Shown here: in pieces, positions 1-36,042 of the stretch | How positions within the stretch are numbered: the first letter of the stretch is position 1 | Layout of the letters: the number at the start of each line of letters is the position of its first letter | Assembly: GCA_964567895.1 (NCBI GenBank) | Contig: CAZMOX010000001.1 | Span: 20,992 to 84,991, forward strand | DNA: 64,000 bases | From: an uncultured Spirochaetales bacterium | GTDB lineage: Bacteria; Spirochaetota; Spirochaetia; JABMQR01 | Reading direction: 5' to 3' | Position numbers and translations under genes: made by a program | Notes under the pieces: model-generated | Seen by the model: only the letters and a program-made list of their open reading frames with translations | Told to the model about the DNA's origin: nothing | Databases searched by the model: none

Positions 1-459
1 AATAATGCTGCTCATACCCTTTTGGAGAGAACTCTCGATGATTCTGCCAACAGACGTGAAATACTGCCTGCTGCATTCCTCACTGCAGATGAAATACTCA
101 AAACAATGAATATGGTTATTTCCGGCGTACGCTTTCATACTGAATCTATCGAACGAAATCTTTCCACCTATGGTGTTTTTGCAGCCACCGAGCGCTTGCT
201 GATGGAACTTGGGCGACGGGGCGGAGATCGTCAGGAGATGCATGAAGTAATACGGGAACACTCACTGGTCGGTTGGGCAGAACTGCAAAAGGGTAAAAAA
301 AACACATTGAGCAAGCTCCTCGCTGGTGATCCAAGAATCACAAAATTTATTCCTGAAAATGATGTTCTGGAACTCCTGGATGCTTCGGAATACATTGGTG
401 ATGCCCGGGAGCGTGCACTATTAGTTGCTGAAGAACTTGAATCACTATTAACGGATTGA
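1..459 (+). CDS. purB: adenylosuccinate lyase, C-terminal part (5' end lies outside the window)
   Basis: The ORF is open from the window edge. The C-terminal region (ERNLSTYGVFAATERLLMELGRRG...HEVIREHS...DP.I) resembles the PurB C-terminal domain and ends with a stop at 457-459. Confidence 0.7.
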   Translation, partial: NNAAHTLLERTLDDSANRREILPAAFLTADEILKTMNMVISGVRFHTESIERNLSTYGVFAATERLLMELGRRGGDRQEMHEVIREHSLVGWAELQKGKKNTLSKLLAGDPRITKFIPENDVLELLDASEYIGDARERALLVAEELESLLTD

Positions 460-572
460 AGTTTGCAAAGTTAATATTTAAATCTGTGAACTGTGATCTG
501 AATTTATTCCCTTTCCTATTAAACATTGTACAATGCAACAACCTCAGTATATACTATCCCTGAGGTGTTCAG

Positions 573-3500
573 ATGAGGAAAATATTTGGTGTCCTGATTA
601 CAGCTTTACTGCTCTCTCTCTTCCTTGTTTCCTGTGAATCTTACGAAGTCGTACGGGAGCCGGTAATTGTAGAATCAGTCGAACCTATTGCAGCTCCTGC
701 TGCAGATATTTCGGATTCTACTCCAAGTACAGAAGCGGTTCCAGAGCAAGAACCTGAAGCCGAAACACGTCAATCCGAACCTGAGATTGAAATAGAATTA
801 GCCGTAGAAGAACCAATTGTTGAACCAATTGCCGATGAAACTCCTGTCCTTGAGCCGATTGAAGCTGAAATAGTGGAAGTAGAAATAGAAGAAGAAATCT
901 CTGAACCAGTAATTAAAGAGGTCGCTCCGATAGAGACTCTGGAAACAGAGTTGCCCGTCGAAGAACCTCCAGCAGAAGTTCTTGTCACAGAACCAGCAAT
1001 CCCGGAAGAAGAACTAGTTGAAACTATTCCTGAATCGGAACCCGAGCCGGAAGTGGTAATGGAAATAATCATTGAGGAACCGGTTATTGAACCAATTGCC
1101 GATGAAACTCCTGTCCTTGAGCCGATTGAAGCTGAAATAGTGGAAGTAGAAATAGAAGAAGAAATCTCTGAACCAGTAATTAAAGAGGTCGCTCCGATAG
1201 AGACTCTGGAAACAGAGTTGCCCGTCGAAGAACCTCCAGCAGAAGTTCTTGTCACAGAACCAGCAATCCCGGAAGAAGAACTAGTTGAAAATGTTCCTGA
1301 ATCGCAACCGGAAGATATTGTTATCGAGTTTCCTCTTTCACTACCGGTACTATCAAATGAACGTCATCCTGAAAAAACAACTCCTGATTTAAAAACTACT
1401 ACACCTGAGACACCAATAGTCACAGAACTTCCGGAAAGTGCAATAATCGAAACTGAAGATGAAATTGTTGAACCGGAAGTATTAGTCGAACCCGAAATAA
1501 CAGAGATTCCGCCAGAGCCGGAACCTGAATCTGTTCCTGAATCATCAGTTGAACCTGAAGCCAGCCCTGAAGTATCAGAAGAACCAGAAATATCCGAAAC
1601 ACCTGCAGTACATGATGTGTCTGCAGTACCAGAGGTGCCTGTAGTAAAGTATGTCTCTATTTTTGACTCTATAAGAGACAACGAATTGACAGTAACTGAA
1701 CGTTTTATACTTGATGGAGCAGATCCAAACCAGATTGATGAATTCGGAACTCCACCGCTTTATATTGCTGCCGGAACAGGTAATGAGTTAATGATCAGTC
1801 TATTGCTTAAACATGAAGCAGATCCTTCAGTACCAAATGCAGAAGGACAGCTTCCTATACATGCTGCAGCAGAAATTTCTTATGAACTTGCCTCACTCCT
1901 AACAGGAAATGGAAGTCTTATATTTTCAGTTAGTGAGCTTGGAATCAATACGCTAGAAAAAGCCCTTTTAGATGGACCAAAAGCTGTTACAGAACTTCTC
2001 GGTGAAGATCTTGTAAACACAGCAGATGAATACGGAAACACTCCGCTTCATCTGGCAGCAGAGATGGGCGGTGTTGAGAACGTCAGACAATTGCTTATAA
2101 ACGGTGCCGATATCAATATTCGCAACAATAATGATCTCCTACCGCTTGATGTTGCTTTTGGATATACCCACAGCGGTAAACATGTACAAGTAGTTGAAGA
2201 GCTCATTAAAAACTATTCAGACATCCCGTCAAATCAGACTTTTTATTACGCATTCCAGGCAATATCTAATACCGGTGTTGATTCCCGATTTGAAAATGGA
2301 GCAACGGTCCTGCACTATACTGCTCAGTACAACCATCCTGCCCTTATGAGTATGTTTATTAAACGCGGTGCTTATCTGGAAGCACGTGATGAAAACAACA
2401 ACACGCCGATTCACATAGCTGTAGAGTATGGAAATCTTGAAATTGTTGAACTTCTTATTCATTCCGGGGTAGATGTTGATGTAAGAAATGGATCCAGCAG
2501 CACCCCCCTGCACTTAGCGGTAACCCAAAGCGGTAAAAAGGATATTATTGAGTACTTGCTGGACAGTGGTGCTGACATAAACAGCAGAAATATCTTTGGC
2601 GACACTGCCCTTCATATATCCGTAGATCCTGAAGTTTCCTCTGAATTTGTTAAGCTGCTCCTACTCAGGAATGCTGACCCAAACAGCTGTGACAAAACAG
2701 GGAATACTCCCATCATGCTGGCTCTTGCACGTGATAATCGTGAGGCAGTGGAACTTCTCCTGGCAAACAACGCAGATTTATACGCAAAAAACTATAATAA
2801 AATTACTCCGCTCATCCGTGCTCTCATGAAGGGAACAGGTGTAATAAATTGGTTTTATACTCCGGAGATGAATAAAACAATTGATGCATATGGTAATACC
2901 CCTCTGCATACAGCAGTAACTAACAGAGCAGAAATTGATGTGGTCGATTTTATCGTTAATGCTGGAGCTGATCTTAATAAAAAGAATTTTCTCGGTGATA
3001 CCGCACTTCACTCAGCAGTCGAGGTTGATTATGTAGATGCTGCAGCTCTTATGATCGACTATGGAGCCGATCCATTCCTGGCTAATAACCGGGGAAAAGC
3101 TCCGGCTGTTTTGGCCTTTGAACGGGGAATTGAATTCACTTCCCGATTAATAACAACTGAAAACCTCTCTATGACTGACATATCCGGAAACACCCCACTT
3201 CATTTAGCCGCACAGTGGGACTATCTTGATATCGTTTCAGACCTCATTGAACAGGGTGCAGATGTTAATACTCATAATAAAGAAGGATTTACCCCAATTC
3301 ATTATGCGGCAAAAAACAACAGTAGTGAAGTATGTCTGATTCTTGCAAATAACAGTGCACTCATAGATGCGCGGGATTCTTATGGGAATACCCCATTACA
3401 CACCGCTGTATCCTGGGAATCTGTTCAGGCTGCTAAGTTTCTGCTGTTTCGCGGAGCCAATGTTCACTTACGGAATTTAAGCGGAAACACTCCGCTGCAT

Positions 3501-4340
3501 ACAGCAGTCTTACAGCGGGATCAGAATAGTGTAAAAATGCTCATAGAATATGGAGCATCTCTTGAATCCAGAGATAATGTGGGAAGGACTCCCCTTCTGC
3601 TTGCAACAAGAAAGAATTACTGGGAGTTATCAGAACTTCTCATATCACTTGGAGCAGACTTCAATGCGAGAGATAACCGGGGAAATACACCGCTTCATGA
3701 GGCAATCCGGAACAGAAATGAAAAAATATGTACTATTCTAATTGAAGAGGGTGCAGCAATTTTTGCCGAAAATCGGTATGGGGACACCCCTATCAGTCTT
3801 GCGTTTACGGCTGGGGTTGATGTTGTGGACTGGTTTATAAAAGGAGATTCTATATCTGCAAGAGATGATAAAGGTAATACTCCAATCCATTCGGCAATCC
3901 AGAACAACTCTTCCGGGGATATTATCAATCTGTTGATCAGTAAAGGTGCAGATATAAACAGCAGAAATAATTGGATAAATACACCACTGCATACAGCATT
4001 CCTTTCTCTCAATAAAAATGCAGTACTTATCCTCAGTGCGGCCGGAGCTGATATTTTTTCAAGAAATGGCGATGGAAATTCACCTCTTTCCATAGCTTTC
4101 TCTGTGGGTACAGATTCATTATCCTGGATTGTTACGGCCGAAAACAAAGATGTTACAGATCAGTATGGAAATACTCCGCTTCATATTGCAGCTTCCTATG
4201 GGAACAAAGATGCGGTTATCTATCTTATGTCGATTGGAATTTCATCTGAAATAAAAAATCTGGCAGGCGATACGCCGGCAGATATGGCAAGAAAACAGGA
4301 TCATCCGGAACTTGCAACGCTGTTGAGGGAAATTGAGTAA
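573..4340 (+). CDS. large ankyrin-repeat lipoprotein. N-terminal signal peptide with lipobox LVSC, a ~330-aa acidic E/P/V/I-rich low-complexity linker, then more than 20 consecutive ankyrin repeats (roughly 25-27 by length)
   Basis: The N-terminus MRKIFGVLITALLLSLFLVSC gives a signal peptide with a Cys lipobox. Recurrent ankyrin consensus motifs (GNTPLHxAA..G, xxLLxxGADxNxxxxxGxTPL) run from about aa 370 to the C-terminus. Confidence 0.85.
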   Translation: MRKIFGVLITALLLSLFLVSCESYEVVREPVIVESVEPIAAPAADISDSTPSTEAVPEQEPEAETRQSEPEIEIELAVEEPIVEPIADETPVLEPIEAEIVEVEIEEEISEPVIKEVAPIETLETELPVEEPPAEVLVTEPAIPEEELVETIPESEPEPEVVMEIIIEEPVIEPIADETPVLEPIEAEIVEVEIEEEISEPVIKEVAPIETLETELPVEEPPAEVLVTEPAIPEEELVENVPESQPEDIVIEFPLSLPVLSNERHPEKTTPDLKTTTPETPIVTELPESAIIETEDEIVEPEVLVEPEITEIPPEPEPESVPESSVEPEASPEVSEEPEISETPAVHDVSAVPEVPVVKYVSIFDSIRDNELTVTERFILDGADPNQIDEFGTPPLYIAAGTGNELMISLLLKHEADPSVPNAEGQLPIHAAAEISYELASLLTGNGSLIFSVSELGINTLEKALLDGPKAVTELLGEDLVNTADEYGNTPLHLAAEMGGVENVRQLLINGADINIRNNNDLLPLDVAFGYTHSGKHVQVVEELIKNYSDIPSNQTFYYAFQAISNTGVDSRFENGATVLHYTAQYNHPALMSMFIKRGAYLEARDENNNTPIHIAVEYGNLEIVELLIHSGVDVDVRNGSSSTPLHLAVTQSGKKDIIEYLLDSGADINSRNIFGDTALHISVDPEVSSEFVKLLLLRNADPNSCDKTGNTPIMLALARDNREAVELLLANNADLYAKNYNKITPLIRALMKGTGVINWFYTPEMNKTIDAYGNTPLHTAVTNRAEIDVVDFIVNAGADLNKKNFLGDTALHSAVEVDYVDAAALMIDYGADPFLANNRGKAPAVLAFERGIEFTSRLITTENLSMTDISGNTPLHLAAQWDYLDIVSDLIEQGADVNTHNKEGFTPIHYAAKNNSSEVCLILANNSALIDARDSYGNTPLHTAVSWESVQAAKFLLFRGANVHLRNLSGNTPLHTAVLQRDQNSVKMLIEYGASLESRDNVGRTPLLLATRKNYWELSELLISLGADFNARDNRGNTPLHEAIRNRNEKICTILIEEGAAIFAENRYGDTPISLAFTAGVDVVDWFIKGDSISARDDKGNTPIHSAIQNNSSGDIINLLISKGADINSRNNWINTPLHTAFLSLNKNAVLILSAAGADIFSRNGDGNSPLSIAFSVGTDSLSWIVTAENKDVTDQYGNTPLHIAASYGNKDAVIYLMSIGISSEIKNLAGDTPADMARKQDHPELATLLREIE
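821..1291. repeat. two identical 204-bp segments (821-1024 and 1088-1291) repeated with a 267-bp period inside the acidic linker of the ankyrin lipoprotein
   Basis: Direct sequence identity of gaaccaattgccgatgaaactcctgtccttgagccgattgaagctgaaatagtggaagtagaaatag...ggaagaagaactagttgaaa at both positions. The repeat encodes the duplicated peptide EPIADETPVLEPIEAEIVEVEIEEEISEPVIKEVAPIETLETELPVEEPPAEVLVTEPAIPEEELVE. Confidence 0.9.
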
Positions 4341-4363: not shown

Positions 4364-4393
4364 GAACAAAACAAAGTTTTGTTCCAATTTTCT
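4364..4393 (+). terminator. putative rho-independent terminator after the ankyrin lipoprotein gene
   Basis: Hairpin gaacaaaac-aaa-gttttgttc (9-bp stem) followed by the T-rich stretch caattttct, 24 nt after the stop codon. Confidence 0.45.
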
Positions 4394-5000: not shown

Positions 5001-5867
5001 TTATTTGATGGCACCAGCCGAGAGGCCCTGGATGATGTACTTCTGGAAAAATATAACAATGATTAGCGGTGGTATGATTGAAATCATAGTAGCCGCTGAC
5101 ATGAGGTCCCAGTGTACAAAGTACTGACCTATGAATTCTGTCATTGTAACAGTAAGAGGTTTTGATTTAAGGGTATAGGTCAGGACCAGCGGTGCCGCAA
5201 ACATGTTCCAAGTATGGAGAAAGGATACAATAGACACTGCGATAAGCCCGGGCATAACCATCTGAATACTTACCAAAAAAATAGTTTGAACCCTTGTACA
5301 ACCGTCAATTCTTGCGGCATCTTCAATCTCTGCAGGTACAGATTCGAAGTAGCCTTTCATAAACCAGGTTTCGAATGGCAACCGGAATGTAAATGACAGG
5401 AGTATCAGCCCAATTTTTGAATCCAGCAAATGCAGATCACTGAACACTGAGAAAAGTCCGATAAGAACAGGCCACGCGGGCAAAGCTATGATACCGATTA
5501 TGACGTAGAAAAAAAATCTGCTGCCCTTGAATCTCAATCTGGAAAATGCGTATCCCAGAAGAGGGGCAAAGAACATAACAAGAATGGTTGTCGATACAGC
5601 AACAATAATTGAATTCCGAATTCCCTTCCTCAGCAGTTCTGTAGCTGCAATTCCACCGCTTCCGCGGAAGCTCTCTCCTGTAACAAGAACTTTCTTGTAA
5701 GCTTCCAGAGTAGGTTTTTCCGGAATCCAATGGGGAGGGATCGAGTACAGCTCTGTTCTTTCGGAAATTGATGAAATGAAAATCCAAAGTAGAGGAGCTG
5801 CTGACCAAAAGATAATGAGAAATACTAAAACTCCAAGAAAGATACTGTATACCGGTCTTTTTTTCAT
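5001..5867 (-). CDS. carbohydrate ABC transporter permease (MalG/UgpE-like)
   Basis: Multi-pass membrane protein with the EAA-loop motif EDAARIDGCTRVQTIFLVSIQMVMPGL. It overlaps the upstream permease gene by 4 bp. Confidence 0.85.
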   Translation of the reverse strand: MKKRPVYSIFLGVLVFLIIFWSAAPLLWIFISSISERTELYSIPPHWIPEKPTLEAYKKVLVTGESFRGSGGIAATELLRKGIRNSIIVAVSTTILVMFFAPLLGYAFSRLRFKGSRFFFYVIIGIIALPAWPVLIGLFSVFSDLHLLDSKIGLILLSFTFRLPFETWFMKGYFESVPAEIEDAARIDGCTRVQTIFLVSIQMVMPGLIAVSIVSFLHTWNMFAAPLVLTYTLKSKPLTVTMTEFIGQYFVHWDLMSAATMISIIPPLIIVIFFQKYIIQGLSAGAIK

Positions 5868-6757
5868 ATTTTGTCCTTCTTGAAACTCATGCGGATGTAA
5901 AAAAGAGTCATCACAAACATGAAAAAACCTACCAGATAAGCCATTGCGGAACCACGTCCGAATCTTCCCATTTCGAAAGTTAACTCATAGTTATAGATCA
6001 TAGGGGTTTTTGTGGATTCACTGAATTCCATCAATGCATATATCCCGTCAAAAACATTAAACGATGCTATTAGCGTGAGTATTACAGCAATTCCACCTAT
6101 TCGTGACAGGGATGACAGGGTTATATAAAAAAACTGCCTGAAAACACCCGCGCCATCTACCTTTGCAGCTTCATAGAGCTGTTTGGGGACTGACTGAAGT
6201 ACACCCAGAAATAATATTGTTATGAAAGGAGCATAGCGCCAGACAAAGATAAACACTGCAAGGTTTAAGGCTACAAATGAGTTGTTGAGCCAGAACTGAT
6301 ACTCTTTGATTATTCCAAGCTGATAAAGAAGTCCGTTTAGTGCACCGTAGTCTCCATTAAAGATCCACTTCCATAGATGTCCATTTACCACAGGCGGTAA
6401 CGCCCAGGGAATTATTACTACAGCTCTGAGAATACCTCTGCCCCTGAATTTTTTGTTCAGAACCAGAGAGATTCCCAGAGAGATCAGCATAACCACTATT
6501 GTCGCGACTGCCATGAAATACAGCACTCTAAGTACTGAAGCAATAAAAACCGGATCTTTCAGCACGTAAATATAGTTATCAAGTCCATTGAATTCTATTC
6601 TGTTTGGCATTTTGAGATTATATCTCAGCATACTGAACTTAAAAGACTGAAAAGCTGGATAGTAGGCAAAACCCAACAGGAGAAGCAGGGCTGGAGCAAG
6701 GATTACATATGCAAGATGCTGTTCATTATCAAGCCACACGGAAATTTTTTTTATCAT
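5864..6757 (-). CDS. carbohydrate ABC transporter permease (MalF/UgpA-like)
   Basis: Six predicted TM segments and the EAA motif YEAAKVDGAGVFRQFFYITL. Confidence 0.85.
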   Translation of the reverse strand: MIKKISVWLDNEQHLAYVILAPALLLLLGFAYYPAFQSFKFSMLRYNLKMPNRIEFNGLDNYIYVLKDPVFIASVLRVLYFMAVATIVVMLISLGISLVLNKKFRGRGILRAVVIIPWALPPVVNGHLWKWIFNGDYGALNGLLYQLGIIKEYQFWLNNSFVALNLAVFIFVWRYAPFITILFLGVLQSVPKQLYEAAKVDGAGVFRQFFYITLSSLSRIGGIAVILTLIASFNVFDGIYALMEFSESTKTPMIYNYELTFEMGRFGRGSAMAYLVGFFMFVMTLFYIRMSFKKDKI

Positions 6758-6825
6758 GTTATGCCCCAGTTTTTAAACAGGGACTCCCAAAGGAGCCCCT
6801 GTAGTTCTTTTATCATGTGGTGGAA

Positions 6826-8064
6826 TTACTCGTATTCCTTCTGCAGCGCCCTGGTGAAATCACCTAGATCCTTTATTGCCTGATCTACATCAACTTCTCC
6901 TTTGGCAACCCTTATGAGAGAGTTTTTCAATTCTGTCTCAAATTCCGCGAACCATGGAGTACTGTAGGGCAGAGGAATAACATACTTTGCCTGTTCGGAC
7001 ATGGCATCCCATCCGTCAATCTTTCCCTGGGCACCCAGATCGGCAAATACTTGTTTGTTGGCCGGAAACATACCGTTTCCTTCATAGCCGAAAAGCTGGG
7101 GTTCTTCAGAAACCATGAATTCTATGAAGCTCAGAGCAGCCTGGGGATATTCGCTGTAGCTGGAAATAGCAAGACCTGCCGGGAGAGACCAGGTGAAATG
7201 CTGTTCCGGAAGCAATAGATAGTCGGCATTGGGCGCGGTTTTTGATTTTTCAGGATTATTGGCAATAGCCAGAGATCCCTGCCATGCCTGATGAAAAGCT
7301 GCTTGTCCTGCCCAGAAAGAGGGGTGCGCGTTGGGTGATGTAAGTCTTTCGGGTGAAATCATTCCCATCTCAAACCACTTAATGAGTCTTTTGTATGCAT
7401 CATAAGCGGGGTCTGCCGGGTCATCAAAAGTGGGATTGCCGTCTTTATCAAACAGGGTAGATCCTGATGAAAGGGAAATCAGGTACCATGACCAATGTCT
7501 TACAGCAATTGCCAAAGGATATTCATATATTCCCTCATTTTTCAGTTTGAGAGAGATGTCCTCGAAATCCTGCCATGTTTTTATTGCATCAGCGGATGTC
7601 CCAATTTTTTCAAGAGCTGATTTGTCATAATCAATCATTACCATCTGCTGGTATATTGGGACCGCATAGGTGTCCCCATCCATCTGGAAAAAGTTTTTTC
7701 CCGCTACCTTGTTAAAAACAGAATCCGGAACAATACTATCAAGTTCCGCAAGAATCCCGGAGTTGCCGAATGTGCCGAAATGACTTATACCTACAAAGAT
7801 GATGTCTGCAGGATTAACTTTTCCTGCAGCAGCCTGCATTACCTTTGTTTTAAGATCCGCGTCCTTCAGTGTCGAAACTTCCACTTTGATTCCGGATTGG
7901 GCTTCAAACTTAGCCAGAAGTTCTTCCGATGGTGCTCCCCATGAGGGTGTAATGTAGATTAGTTTATCGGGTTTTGCTTCTTCCTGTGCTGCATCTTGTT
8001 TTCCAGCTGCAAATGCGGATACGGTGATAATCAGAATAATTAATACTAAAAAGAGCTTTTTCAT
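6826..8064 (-). CDS. ABC transporter extracellular solute-binding protein (family 1, sugar-type)
   Basis: N-terminal signal peptide MKKLFLVLIILIITVSAFAAG. At 412 aa, its length and composition are typical of sugar substrate-binding proteins. It heads a three-gene operon with the two permeases. Confidence 0.8.
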   Translation of the reverse strand: MKKLFLVLIILIITVSAFAAGKQDAAQEEAKPDKLIYITPSWGAPSEELLAKFEAQSGIKVEVSTLKDADLKTKVMQAAAGKVNPADIIFVGISHFGTFGNSGILAELDSIVPDSVFNKVAGKNFFQMDGDTYAVPIYQQMVMIDYDKSALEKIGTSADAIKTWQDFEDISLKLKNEGIYEYPLAIAVRHWSWYLISLSSGSTLFDKDGNPTFDDPADPAYDAYKRLIKWFEMGMISPERLTSPNAHPSFWAGQAAFHQAWQGSLAIANNPEKSKTAPNADYLLLPEQHFTWSLPAGLAISSYSEYPQAALSFIEFMVSEEPQLFGYEGNGMFPANKQVFADLGAQGKIDGWDAMSEQAKYVIPLPYSTPWFAEFETELKNSLIRVAKGEVDVDQAIKDLGDFTRALQKEYE

Positions 8065-8192: not shown

Positions 8193-9350
8193 ATGCATAA
8201 TGAGTATATGAGAAAAAATAAAGCAATAGGACTCATGTCCGGTACTTCAGTAGACTCTATAGACGCGGCTGTTGTTGATATTGAGGAATCAGATAACTCT
8301 GTTTCTGTAAAACAGATAACAGGAATCGCCTTTTCAATACCCCGGGCTGTCAGAAGTTCTATTTTTGCACTATTTGAGGACAGTAAGGGGTCTTTAAGAA
8401 ATCTCGTTATTATGAATACGGTGCTAGGAGAACTCTTCGCGGAAGCGACAGAACATCTTCTCAGATGTACCAGTCTTGAGCCTGAAGATATTACAGTGAT
8501 AGGATCTCATGGCCAGACTATATATCATCTATCTGAAAAGGTGGAATGCTGCGGCCGGGGGGTAAGGGGTTCCCTTCAGATAGGAGAGGGTTCTATTATT
8601 GCCAGGAAAACAGGGATTCCAACAGTAACCGATTTTAGGCCTGGTGATATCGCGGCCGGAGGTTCCGGGGCTCCTTTGGTACCTTTCTTTGACCTGATTT
8701 TGTCGAAGGAGATGGGGTATAACACTGCTTTTCAGAATATCGGGGGTATTGGGAATGTTACTTTTATAGAAAAACAAGGCGGCAGGCCGATTGCTTTCGA
8801 TACAGGGCCGGGAAACATGATTGTCGATTACCTTGCATCTGAATATTCCGGTGGACAGCTGCAATATGATAAAGATGGGAAAATCGGTAGAGAAGGAAGG
8901 GTAAGGGAAGATCTTCTAGGTGAGTGGATGCACCATCCTTTCTTCCTAAAACCACCACCCAGGTCTACAGGCAGAGAGGAATTCGGCTCTGAGTTTTTCA
9001 ATACCTATCTGAAAGGGGTAGAGATAAACAGCGATCTTGTTAGGACTGCCGAGGAATTTACTGTCAGGACTATTGTTGGTTCGTATAGAAAACATCTGTC
9101 CGGAAAGCCTTCGACACTGATAGTAACCGGCGGGGGAGCTCACAATCCAGTAATCATGAACTCCCTCAAAAAAGAGCTGAAAGAGTGCAGGATACTTACC
9201 GGGGACGAGGCGGGGATAAGCACTGATTATAAGGAAGCAGCAGCTTTTGCGCTTCTTGGATATTTTGCCTATCGAAAACGGGTCAATAATGTACCCGACG
9301 CGACAGGCGCGGAAGGCGAAGCTGTGATGGGAAAACTGTCACTTCCCTGA
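8193..9350 (+). CDS. anmK: anhydro-N-acetylmuramic acid kinase (the start may be the ATG at 8208)
   Basis: N-terminal GLMSGTSVDSIDAAVVDI matches the AnmK signature (MSGTSxDGID), and the whole protein fits the AnmK family. Its length is 385 aa. Confidence 0.85.
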   Translation: MHNEYMRKNKAIGLMSGTSVDSIDAAVVDIEESDNSVSVKQITGIAFSIPRAVRSSIFALFEDSKGSLRNLVIMNTVLGELFAEATEHLLRCTSLEPEDITVIGSHGQTIYHLSEKVECCGRGVRGSLQIGEGSIIARKTGIPTVTDFRPGDIAAGGSGAPLVPFFDLILSKEMGYNTAFQNIGGIGNVTFIEKQGGRPIAFDTGPGNMIVDYLASEYSGGQLQYDKDGKIGREGRVREDLLGEWMHHPFFLKPPPRSTGREEFGSEFFNTYLKGVEINSDLVRTAEEFTVRTIVGSYRKHLSGKPSTLIVTGGGAHNPVIMNSLKKELKECRILTGDEAGISTDYKEAAAFALLGYFAYRKRVNNVPDATGAEGEAVMGKLSLP

Positions 9351-35970: not shown

Positions 35971-36042
35971 GGCGCCGTACCCAAGTGGTAAGGGAGAGGT
36001 CTGCAAAACCTTTATGCACCGGTTCGAATCCGGTCGGCGCCT
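35971..36042 (+). tRNA. tRNA-Cys (anticodon GCA)
   Basis: Cloverleaf with acceptor stem ggcgccg/cggcgcc, anticodon stem gaggt/acctt, anticodon loop cuGCAaa, T-loop ggttcgaatcc and discriminator U. Confidence 0.8.

Follow-up and report, generated by a model that had tools for sequence, protein, structure and literature searches.

Introduction

Discussion of bacterial ankyrin-repeat proteins usually centres on effectors directed at eukaryotic hosts, and the ankyrin proteins of the Pseudomonas aeruginosa AnkB and Leptospira ank-katE systems are small. Long superhelical ankyrin solenoids are known from the membrane-binding domains of ankyrin-1 and ankyrin-B (24 repeats; 4RLV, 8CS9) and from the 29-repeat spring of NOMPC (5VKQ). 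A different element of the present story, the flexible lipid-anchored tether, has counterparts in outer-membrane lipoproteins such as LpoB of Escherichia coli, whose disordered linkers reach across the periplasm. Here we describe a gene that brings these elements together. It lies in a 64,000-nucleotide stretch of DNA from an uncultured Spirochaetales bacterium (GenBank assembly GCA_964567895.1, contig CAZMOX010000001.1, positions 20,992 to 84,991 of the forward strand; hereafter "the window", in whose own numbering all window coordinates are given) and encodes a predicted lipoprotein in which a long polyanionic spacer separates the membrane anchor from a solenoid of 27 ankyrin repeats. Sequence comparison identifies this protein as a spacer-bearing member of a family of spirochaetal ankyrin lipoproteins of about 930 residues. 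Members of the family are already in public databases under the generic name "ankyrin repeat domain-containing protein", and the form with a spacer combines known parts into a variant architecture.

Architecture of the predicted ankyrin lipoprotein

The open reading frame (ORF) occupies 573..4340 of the + strand, exactly the coordinates given in a first-pass annotation of the window, and encodes 1255 amino acids from an ATG at 573 that is the first possible start downstream of an in-frame stop. All features of the gene given below lie on the same strand. The first 20 residues (MRKIFGVLITALLLSLFLVS; 573..632) form a predicted signal peptide with the lipobox L-V-S ahead of Cys21 (633..635), which would be the lipid-modified first residue of the mature protein. 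The N-terminus reads MRKIFGVLITALLLSLFLVSC, followed by ESYE, so that R2 and K3 precede an uncharged hydrophobic core, with no charged residue in positions 4-20, that leads into F-L-V-S-C with the cysteine at 21. Both the PROSITE PS51257 lipoprotein pattern, applied by reading the sequence, and its positional rules (cysteine within 15-35) hold. Orthologues have equivalent lipoboxes: in the large majority of 76 spirochaete-type orthologue loci a lipobox cysteine, found by pattern or by eye, stands 0-40 residues before the array, and most of the orthologues missed by a simple lipobox pattern show one by eye (FMSCGS, LPACKS, AGCAS, YSCAS). The lipoprotein signal (LVSC) proposed in the first-pass annotation is thus present here and retained in nearly all spirochaete orthologues, and the window protein is predicted to be a lipoprotein acylated at Cys21.

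The ankyrin solenoid extends over residues 359-1255 (1647..4337) and comprises 27 repeats plus one single-helix insert, as delimited by Pfam, a hidden Markov model (HMM) of its own repeats, AlphaFold2, Foldseek and the repeat register. The Pfam models Ank (PF00023) and Ank_2 (PF12796) score 426 and 433 bits against cut-offs of 21.1 and 27.3, with E ~1e-133, while the HMM of the protein's own repeats recognizes 19 units. An AlphaFold2 model of residues 345-1255 has a mean predicted local distance difference test (pLDDT) score of 88.5 and contains 27 helix pairs spaced 31-34 residues apart, giving a regular period of about 33 residues. Pfam, AlphaFold2 and Foldseek thus agree with the annotation on the identity of the repeats, of which it had counted "about 25", slightly too few. 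The array departs somewhat from uniformity. A single long helix is inserted at about residues 552-574, in both the AlphaFold2 model and the repeat register, the segment at about 540-575 is irregular (pLDDT 62-69), and five variant repeats, R4, R13, R16, R23 and R26, are 31 residues long and lack the GAD-x-N hairpin loop. These five lie at residues 456-486, 742-772, 840-870, 1069-1099 and 1167-1197 (nt ~1938-2030, 2796-2888, 3090-3182, 3777-3869 and 4071-4163), at intervals of 9, 3, 7 and 3 repeats, often with a tryptophan in helix 2. Their positions are kept across the family and may divide the solenoid into modules.

Foldseek assigns a probability of 1.00 to matches with ankyrin-1, AnkB (ankyrin-B), NOMPC and designed ankyrin repeat proteins (DARPins). 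The best are erythrocyte ankyrin-1, the AnkB 24-repeat structure and the NOMPC spring (E 1e-38 to 1e-31), all long superhelical solenoids like the one described here, at 22-25% identity, the level of generic repeat similarity. No spirochaete relative is found among the matching solved structures, which are eukaryotic ankyrins, toxins and DARPins. Unlike the cytoplasmic ankyrin-1 and ankyrin-B, the window protein is predicted to be exported and lipid-anchored.

Between Cys21 and the solenoid lies a spacer of 337 residues (22-358; 636..1646), its end placed at residue 358 by the repeat register. Over residues 22-360 Glu makes up 28.6%, Pro 15.9%, Val 13.3% and Ile 10.6%, and Asp and Glu together 31%; 105 acidic residues (D+E) face only 8 basic ones (K+R), for a net charge of -97. 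Gly and Cys are absent from the segment, and just 3 of its residues are aromatic. It falls on the disordered side of the Uversky charge-hydropathy boundary (H 0.472 < 0.516). A full-length AlphaFold2 model of P0001, a one-copy allele of the protein with one spacer repeat unit fewer, gives residues 1-266 a pLDDT of 26-33 and no secondary structure, and the array becomes confident from about residue 272. The acidic, proline-rich linker of the earlier annotation is therefore borne out as a predicted disordered region. Within it a non-acidic island at residues 253-283 (FPLSLPVLSNERHPEKTTPDLKTTTPETPIV, in short FPLSLPVLSNERHPEK...; 1329..1421) is recognizable in the closest relatives and is conserved in the Black Sea sequence described below (P0002/L001; FPLSLPILLNEHQPEK...). 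As in LpoB-type proteins, a lipid anchor and an unstructured linker could allow a folded domain to reach a distant partner. By comparison, the linker of the window protein is several times as long, consists of tandem repeats and is polyanionic, and the folded domain it carries is an ankyrin solenoid.

A colinear family in Spirochaetia

A first protein search returned two near relatives together with Treponema proteins of 929-936 residues at 31-32% identity. In an alignment of five proteins (A1) the array of the window protein and those of Treponema run together along their full length; the gaps are few and short, and about 200 columns are invariant. A tblastn scan of one genome per species, from which the best 80 loci were taken, extended this to colinear matches in about 75 Spirochaetia genomes, covering query residues ~5-910 of 911. 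The genomes are labelled Treponema, Brucepastera parasyntrophica, Treponemataceae, Spirochaetaceae or Spirochaetia; the Treponema matches include T. pectinovorum, T. berlinense and metagenome-assembled genomes (MAGs) labelled T. denticola and T. brennaborense. Of these 80 loci, 76 are spirochaete-type orthologues, and the remaining four were set aside as unrelated ankyrin proteins from two Alphaproteobacteria, one archaeon and one Aquirickettsiella. Searching with a profile yielded 1471 proteins at E<=1e-100, some of them eukaryotic ankyrin-repeat proteins; most of the 120 matches listed are 920-950 residues long and a few are longer. The exact window protein was not on record in a database look-up, and a nearly identical one is present in ENA.

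The Treponema and Brucepastera lipoproteins of about 930 residues share the whole array with the window protein at about 30% identity, have their variant repeats at matching positions and carry a lipobox cysteine. They differ in the distance between that cysteine and the array, 0-40 residues in most Treponema-type orthologues against 337 in the window protein, which in this respect departs from the family trait of an array that starts a few tens of residues at most after the lipid-bearing cysteine. The first-pass annotation regarded long ankyrin arrays as rare in free-living bacteria and usually linked to host interaction or to large protein-protein scaffolds. What emerges instead is a large colinear family in about 75 species-level Spirochaetia genomes, free-living aquatic MAGs among them, from sources that include termite gut, rumen, faeces and open water.

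A protein of the syphilis agent is probably a member of the family. T. pallidum TP_0835 is listed as an ankyrin mimicry candidate in a published screen (PMC5359739), and its assignment to the family is judged by its ankyrin label and by length (TPANIC_0835 has 934 residues). A literature search on TP0835 and on the ankyrin lipoproteins of Treponema, including T. denticola, found no functional study, just the mimicry screen and a modelling table. The ankyrin matches of a periodontitis paper proved to be human genes and were discarded as family data.

This listing raises the question of whether these proteins are host-interaction factors that imitate eukaryotic ankyrin. The best matches outside the spirochaetes, in sequence as in fold, are indeed vertebrate ankyrins (ankyrin-1/2/3), and there are partial matches to NCBIfam models of Legionella Dot/Icm ankyrin effectors. 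However, the closest relatives of the window protein are found in environmental MAGs, some of which have isolate names indicating the Black Sea water column (150 m) and a lake (13.5 m). The strain of the window is itself a metagenome population. Only ankyrin-type Pfam models occur in the window protein, whereas the vertebrate matches also carry PF00791, PF17809 and PF00531; the ZU5, UPA and death domains that eukaryotic ankyrins possess are absent from it, as is any channel domain. Its export signal is one for signal peptidase II and not for effector secretion, so that the Dot/Icm effectors, although likewise bacterial ankyrin proteins, would leave the cell by a different route. The effector models AnkY, AnkH, AnkG and others were accordingly rejected as identities: scores of 283 against 600, 243 against 600 and 166 against 500 bits reflect generic ankyrin similarity, and all 11 models of type IV secretion system (T4SS) ankyrin proteins listed fall far below their equivalog cut-offs. 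Taken together, these observations make mimicry of a host ankyrin very unlikely. The MZA anti-phage protein MzaA, which has a sigma-70 domain, was also rejected, with 261 bits against a cut-off of 800 and a match that covers the repeats only.

Conservation of the concave face

A clue to what the solenoid might bind comes from the pattern of conservation. In an alignment of 67 distant orthologues, positions of the concave face (those randomized in designed ankyrin binders) were compared with exposed positions of helix 2. Mean conservation is 0.44 for the concave and 0.36 for the outer face (Mann-Whitney p = 9e-4), a contrast that is somewhat overstated because the concave set includes position 3, where Asn is the general ankyrin consensus. 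It is largest in R17-R19, with 0.60-0.71 against 0.25-0.39. The best-conserved part of the concave face, R17-R20 (residues 871-1002; 3183..3578), stands out in the 67 orthologues and in the invariant columns of A1 alike and has the highest pLDDT, 94-96; two non-consensus tryptophans, in R17 and R19, are invariant across the five proteins of A1. A conserved concave face of this kind points to a partner that would itself be conserved across spirochaetes.

Spacer variation in the aquatic clade

In contrast to the array, the spacer differs widely among relatives. Eight intermediate relatives (P0125, P0135, P0138, P0141, P0144, P0156, P0162, P0164), all with a lipobox, have arrays 48-58% identical to that of the window protein and spacers of 82-212 residues with 21-30% Asp/Glu and 12-27% Pro. 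The Black Sea MAG (L001; 150 m) has an array of 84% identity and a spacer of 734 residues with a net charge of -187, built from a 279-nt unit repeated 4.8 times. At L001 4120-5424 (JADHUD010000022.1) the unit of this spacer corresponds to 93 residues, and the 1118-residue protein P0002 seems to be a truncated prediction of this gene. Two further relatives at 62-64% identity (L003, L004) have (AEEARL)n in place of the acidic proline-rich sequence. In L003 a lipoprotein start, LLLLSC|ETS, found by manual three-frame reading, is followed by an 18-nt unit repeated about 120 times, or ~750 residues, a length that is approximate because frameshifts, probably errors of assembly, interrupt the array. 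This repeat, at L003 3290-6000 (JAGYPA010000007.1), is charged and helix-prone. The aquatic orthologues (L001-L005 and the eight intermediate proteins) thus share with the window protein the layout of lipobox, spacer and array, at 48-84% array identity, and differ in what fills the spacer: 82-212 residues rich in Glu and Pro, 734 residues of 93-residue units, or about 750 residues of (AEEARL)n. Across the clade the spacer stays charged, net acidic and of low complexity, with neither its sequence nor its length kept, and it is probably extended throughout. By these comparisons it is a feature of the aquatic clade that grows and shrinks by gain and loss of tandem repeats.

The strain of the window may show the same process. 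Tandem Repeats Finder reports a 267-nt unit repeated 1.8 times at 820-1309 with 98% matches, which, together with a base-by-base comparison, delimits two copies of an 89-residue unit, the first at residues 84-172 (822..1088) and the second at residues 173-261 (1089..1355). A core of 204 nt is identical between them (820-1023 = 1087-1290), and the ~40 nt that flank it on each side are divergent. The duplication noted in the first-pass annotation is real, and its recent origin holds only in part: because the flanks diverged around an identical core, the two-copy state is not brand new, and the core has been homogenized or recently recombined within an older duplication. A second contig, L081 (ENA ERZ27315541, k141_331168), matches the window over 10 kb at 99.5-99.9% identity with exactly one unit fewer, as in P0001; its protein passes from the head of copy 1 through the core to the tail of copy 2, leaving a spacer of about 250 residues. 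This one-copy form could be a real recombinational deletion or polymorphism, or it could be a collapse in short-read assembly, since the perfect repeat of 204 nt exceeds k = 141; both fit.

Variation of this type is familiar from many surface proteins, and it is the evidence that bears most directly on an alternative location. The protein might be a surface lipoprotein anchored in the outer leaflet of the outer membrane, its acidic stalk or brush projecting the solenoid towards external ligands such as cells, particles or host molecules. Spacers from 82 to about 750 residues that change by tandem repeats, with a one-unit difference within a strain, would suit such a role, as would the acidic mature N-terminus C-E-S-Y-E, and the helix-prone (AEEARL)n of L003 could form a rod longer than the width of the periplasm, if its inferred length is right; that repeat is frameshifted, however, and its true length uncertain. 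On the other side, the solenoid and its groove are conserved across host-associated and free-living lineages, where varied ligands or immune pressure would be expected to produce variation. Furthermore, the Treponema orthologues are nearly without a spacer, and projection from the membrane is therefore not needed for the core function. A surface location strikes us as possible but doubtful.

Proposed role in the spirochaete envelope

On balance, and with modest confidence, we take the window protein to be an exported, lipid-anchored ankyrin scaffold of the spirochaete's own envelope, carried in this clade on a polyanionic leash. The family differs from host effectors in its predicted lipoprotein export, in its repeat-for-repeat conservation across host-associated and free-living spirochaetes and in its conserved groove, a combination that points to a role in the envelope of the spirochaete itself. 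The protein would be exported by the Sec pathway and cleaved by signal peptidase II before Cys21, and the acylated Cys21 would then sit in a membrane leaflet. From there the disordered polyanionic spacer of 337 residues may act as a long flexible leash, which would give the 27-repeat solenoid (about 900 residues) a reach of tens of nanometres around its anchor. The concave groove, comprising R8-R11, R14 and above all R17-R19, would most likely bind one or more conserved envelope proteins of the spirochaete. The spacer would have been added in the aquatic clade to a solenoid that is orthologous, repeat for repeat, with the ~930-residue lipoproteins of Treponema. We lean towards a periplasmic location because the solenoid is kept in free-living and host-associated lineages, the orthologues work without a spacer and the binding face is conserved. 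The platform for binding, periplasmic or on the surface, that the first-pass annotation proposed is plausible.

Several points weigh against this proposal. Spacers of 730-750 residues, and the possible very long rod of (AEEARL)n, seem excessive for a periplasmic leash and resemble the stalks of surface proteins, for which length variation by tandem repeats is also typical. The gene neighbourhood offers no functional clue, purB being the only neighbour conserved within the clade. The contribution of the position 3 consensus Asn to the concave-face contrast also counts here, and we infer the lipidation, location and binding partner of the window protein from its sequence. The spacer variants themselves offer a way forward, as they present one folded domain on natural tethers of graded length (0 to ~750 residues), a series that could serve to test both the location of the protein and the reach it needs.

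By analogy with eukaryotic ankyrins, the groove of the solenoid could hold several partners near the membrane. A stronger version of this analogy, that the solenoid is a functional bacterial counterpart of eukaryotic ankyrin, acting as a membrane-anchored adaptor or elastic element that connects a membrane with some spirochaete-specific periplasmic structure, for instance the flagellar ribbon or the peptidoglycan, with the aquatic spacer as an evolvable tether that sets its reach, we consider unlikely.

Genomic context

Clustering of the ORFs of 77 loci revealed no neighbour conserved throughout the family. The neighbours that recur within sub-clades are housekeeping genes or regulators, of which a Trp-repressor-like protein, Fur/PerR, rubrerythrin and a VTT-domain protein are confirmed by Pfam, and TatD, RsmI and a BAX-inhibitor-like protein were recognized by eye only. 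In 21 loci the gene for the Trp-repressor-family protein, of about 108 residues, sits beside the ankyrin gene, its orientation varying (among them L079 at 8755-9081, L043, L046 and L052-L054). In about nine Treponema-type loci a rubrerythrin gene, a Fur/PerR gene and the ankyrin gene follow one another on one strand (L060, L061, L063, L067, L069, L071 and L079, with partial arrangements in L030, L040 and L051), an order that recalls the ank-katE-perR cluster of Leptospira.

This arrangement, with the orthologue directly downstream of rubrerythrin and Fur/PerR, would suit a protein that is a periplasmic accessory to oxidative-stress enzymes and supports catalase activity in the manner of Pseudomonas aeruginosa AnkB or Leptospira ank-katE. 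The ankyrin gene of Leptospira adjoins katE and perR and responds to peroxide, and AnkB is reported to be periplasmic (PMC7567364). However, most orthologous loci lack the arrangement, and the neighbours in the window and its clade are instead purB, a GNAT acetyltransferase, a sugar ABC transporter and AnmK. The solenoid of 27 repeats is, moreover, far larger than the AnkB and ank-katE proteins, and we judge such an accessory role very unlikely.

The signals around the gene in the window are all on the + strand. A Shine-Dalgarno sequence, GAGGTG (562..567), read from the sequence, lies 5 nt upstream of the ATG. A consensus scan places a promoter-like site at 527..555 (TGTACA, a 17-nt spacer and TATACT; 9/12 matches), although sites of this kind are not enriched relative to shuffled sequence and so carry little weight. 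A terminator-like hairpin followed by a T-rich tail (4364..4384) begins 24 nt past the stop codon. The gene looks like a transcription unit of its own, since it lies between promoter-like and terminator-like sites and has no conserved operon partner. Its G+C content of 41-45% is unremarkable and similar to that of its surroundings.

Upstream lies the 3' end of purB, encoding adenylosuccinate lyase (window 22-459). The same gene also immediately precedes the ankyrin gene in L003, L081 and L082 of the aquatic clade, the one clade of the family with purB in this position; in L082, purB is itself preceded by purA and two phosphoribosyltransferase genes, a setting from which a functional link to the ankyrin gene is not apparent. 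Downstream is the GNAT acetyltransferase gene, followed on the opposite strand by the sugar ABC transporter and then AnmK. The transporter genes (5001-8064), for a binding protein and two permeases of sugar type, adjoin the gene for AnmK, anhydro-N-acetylmuramic acid kinase (8193-9350), and the two may together form a cluster for peptidoglycan recycling or amino-sugar uptake. The rest of the 64-kb window holds no second ankyrin gene and no other protein with an acidic spacer. At gathering score Rfam matches the window just once, at a tRNA gene (35971-36042).

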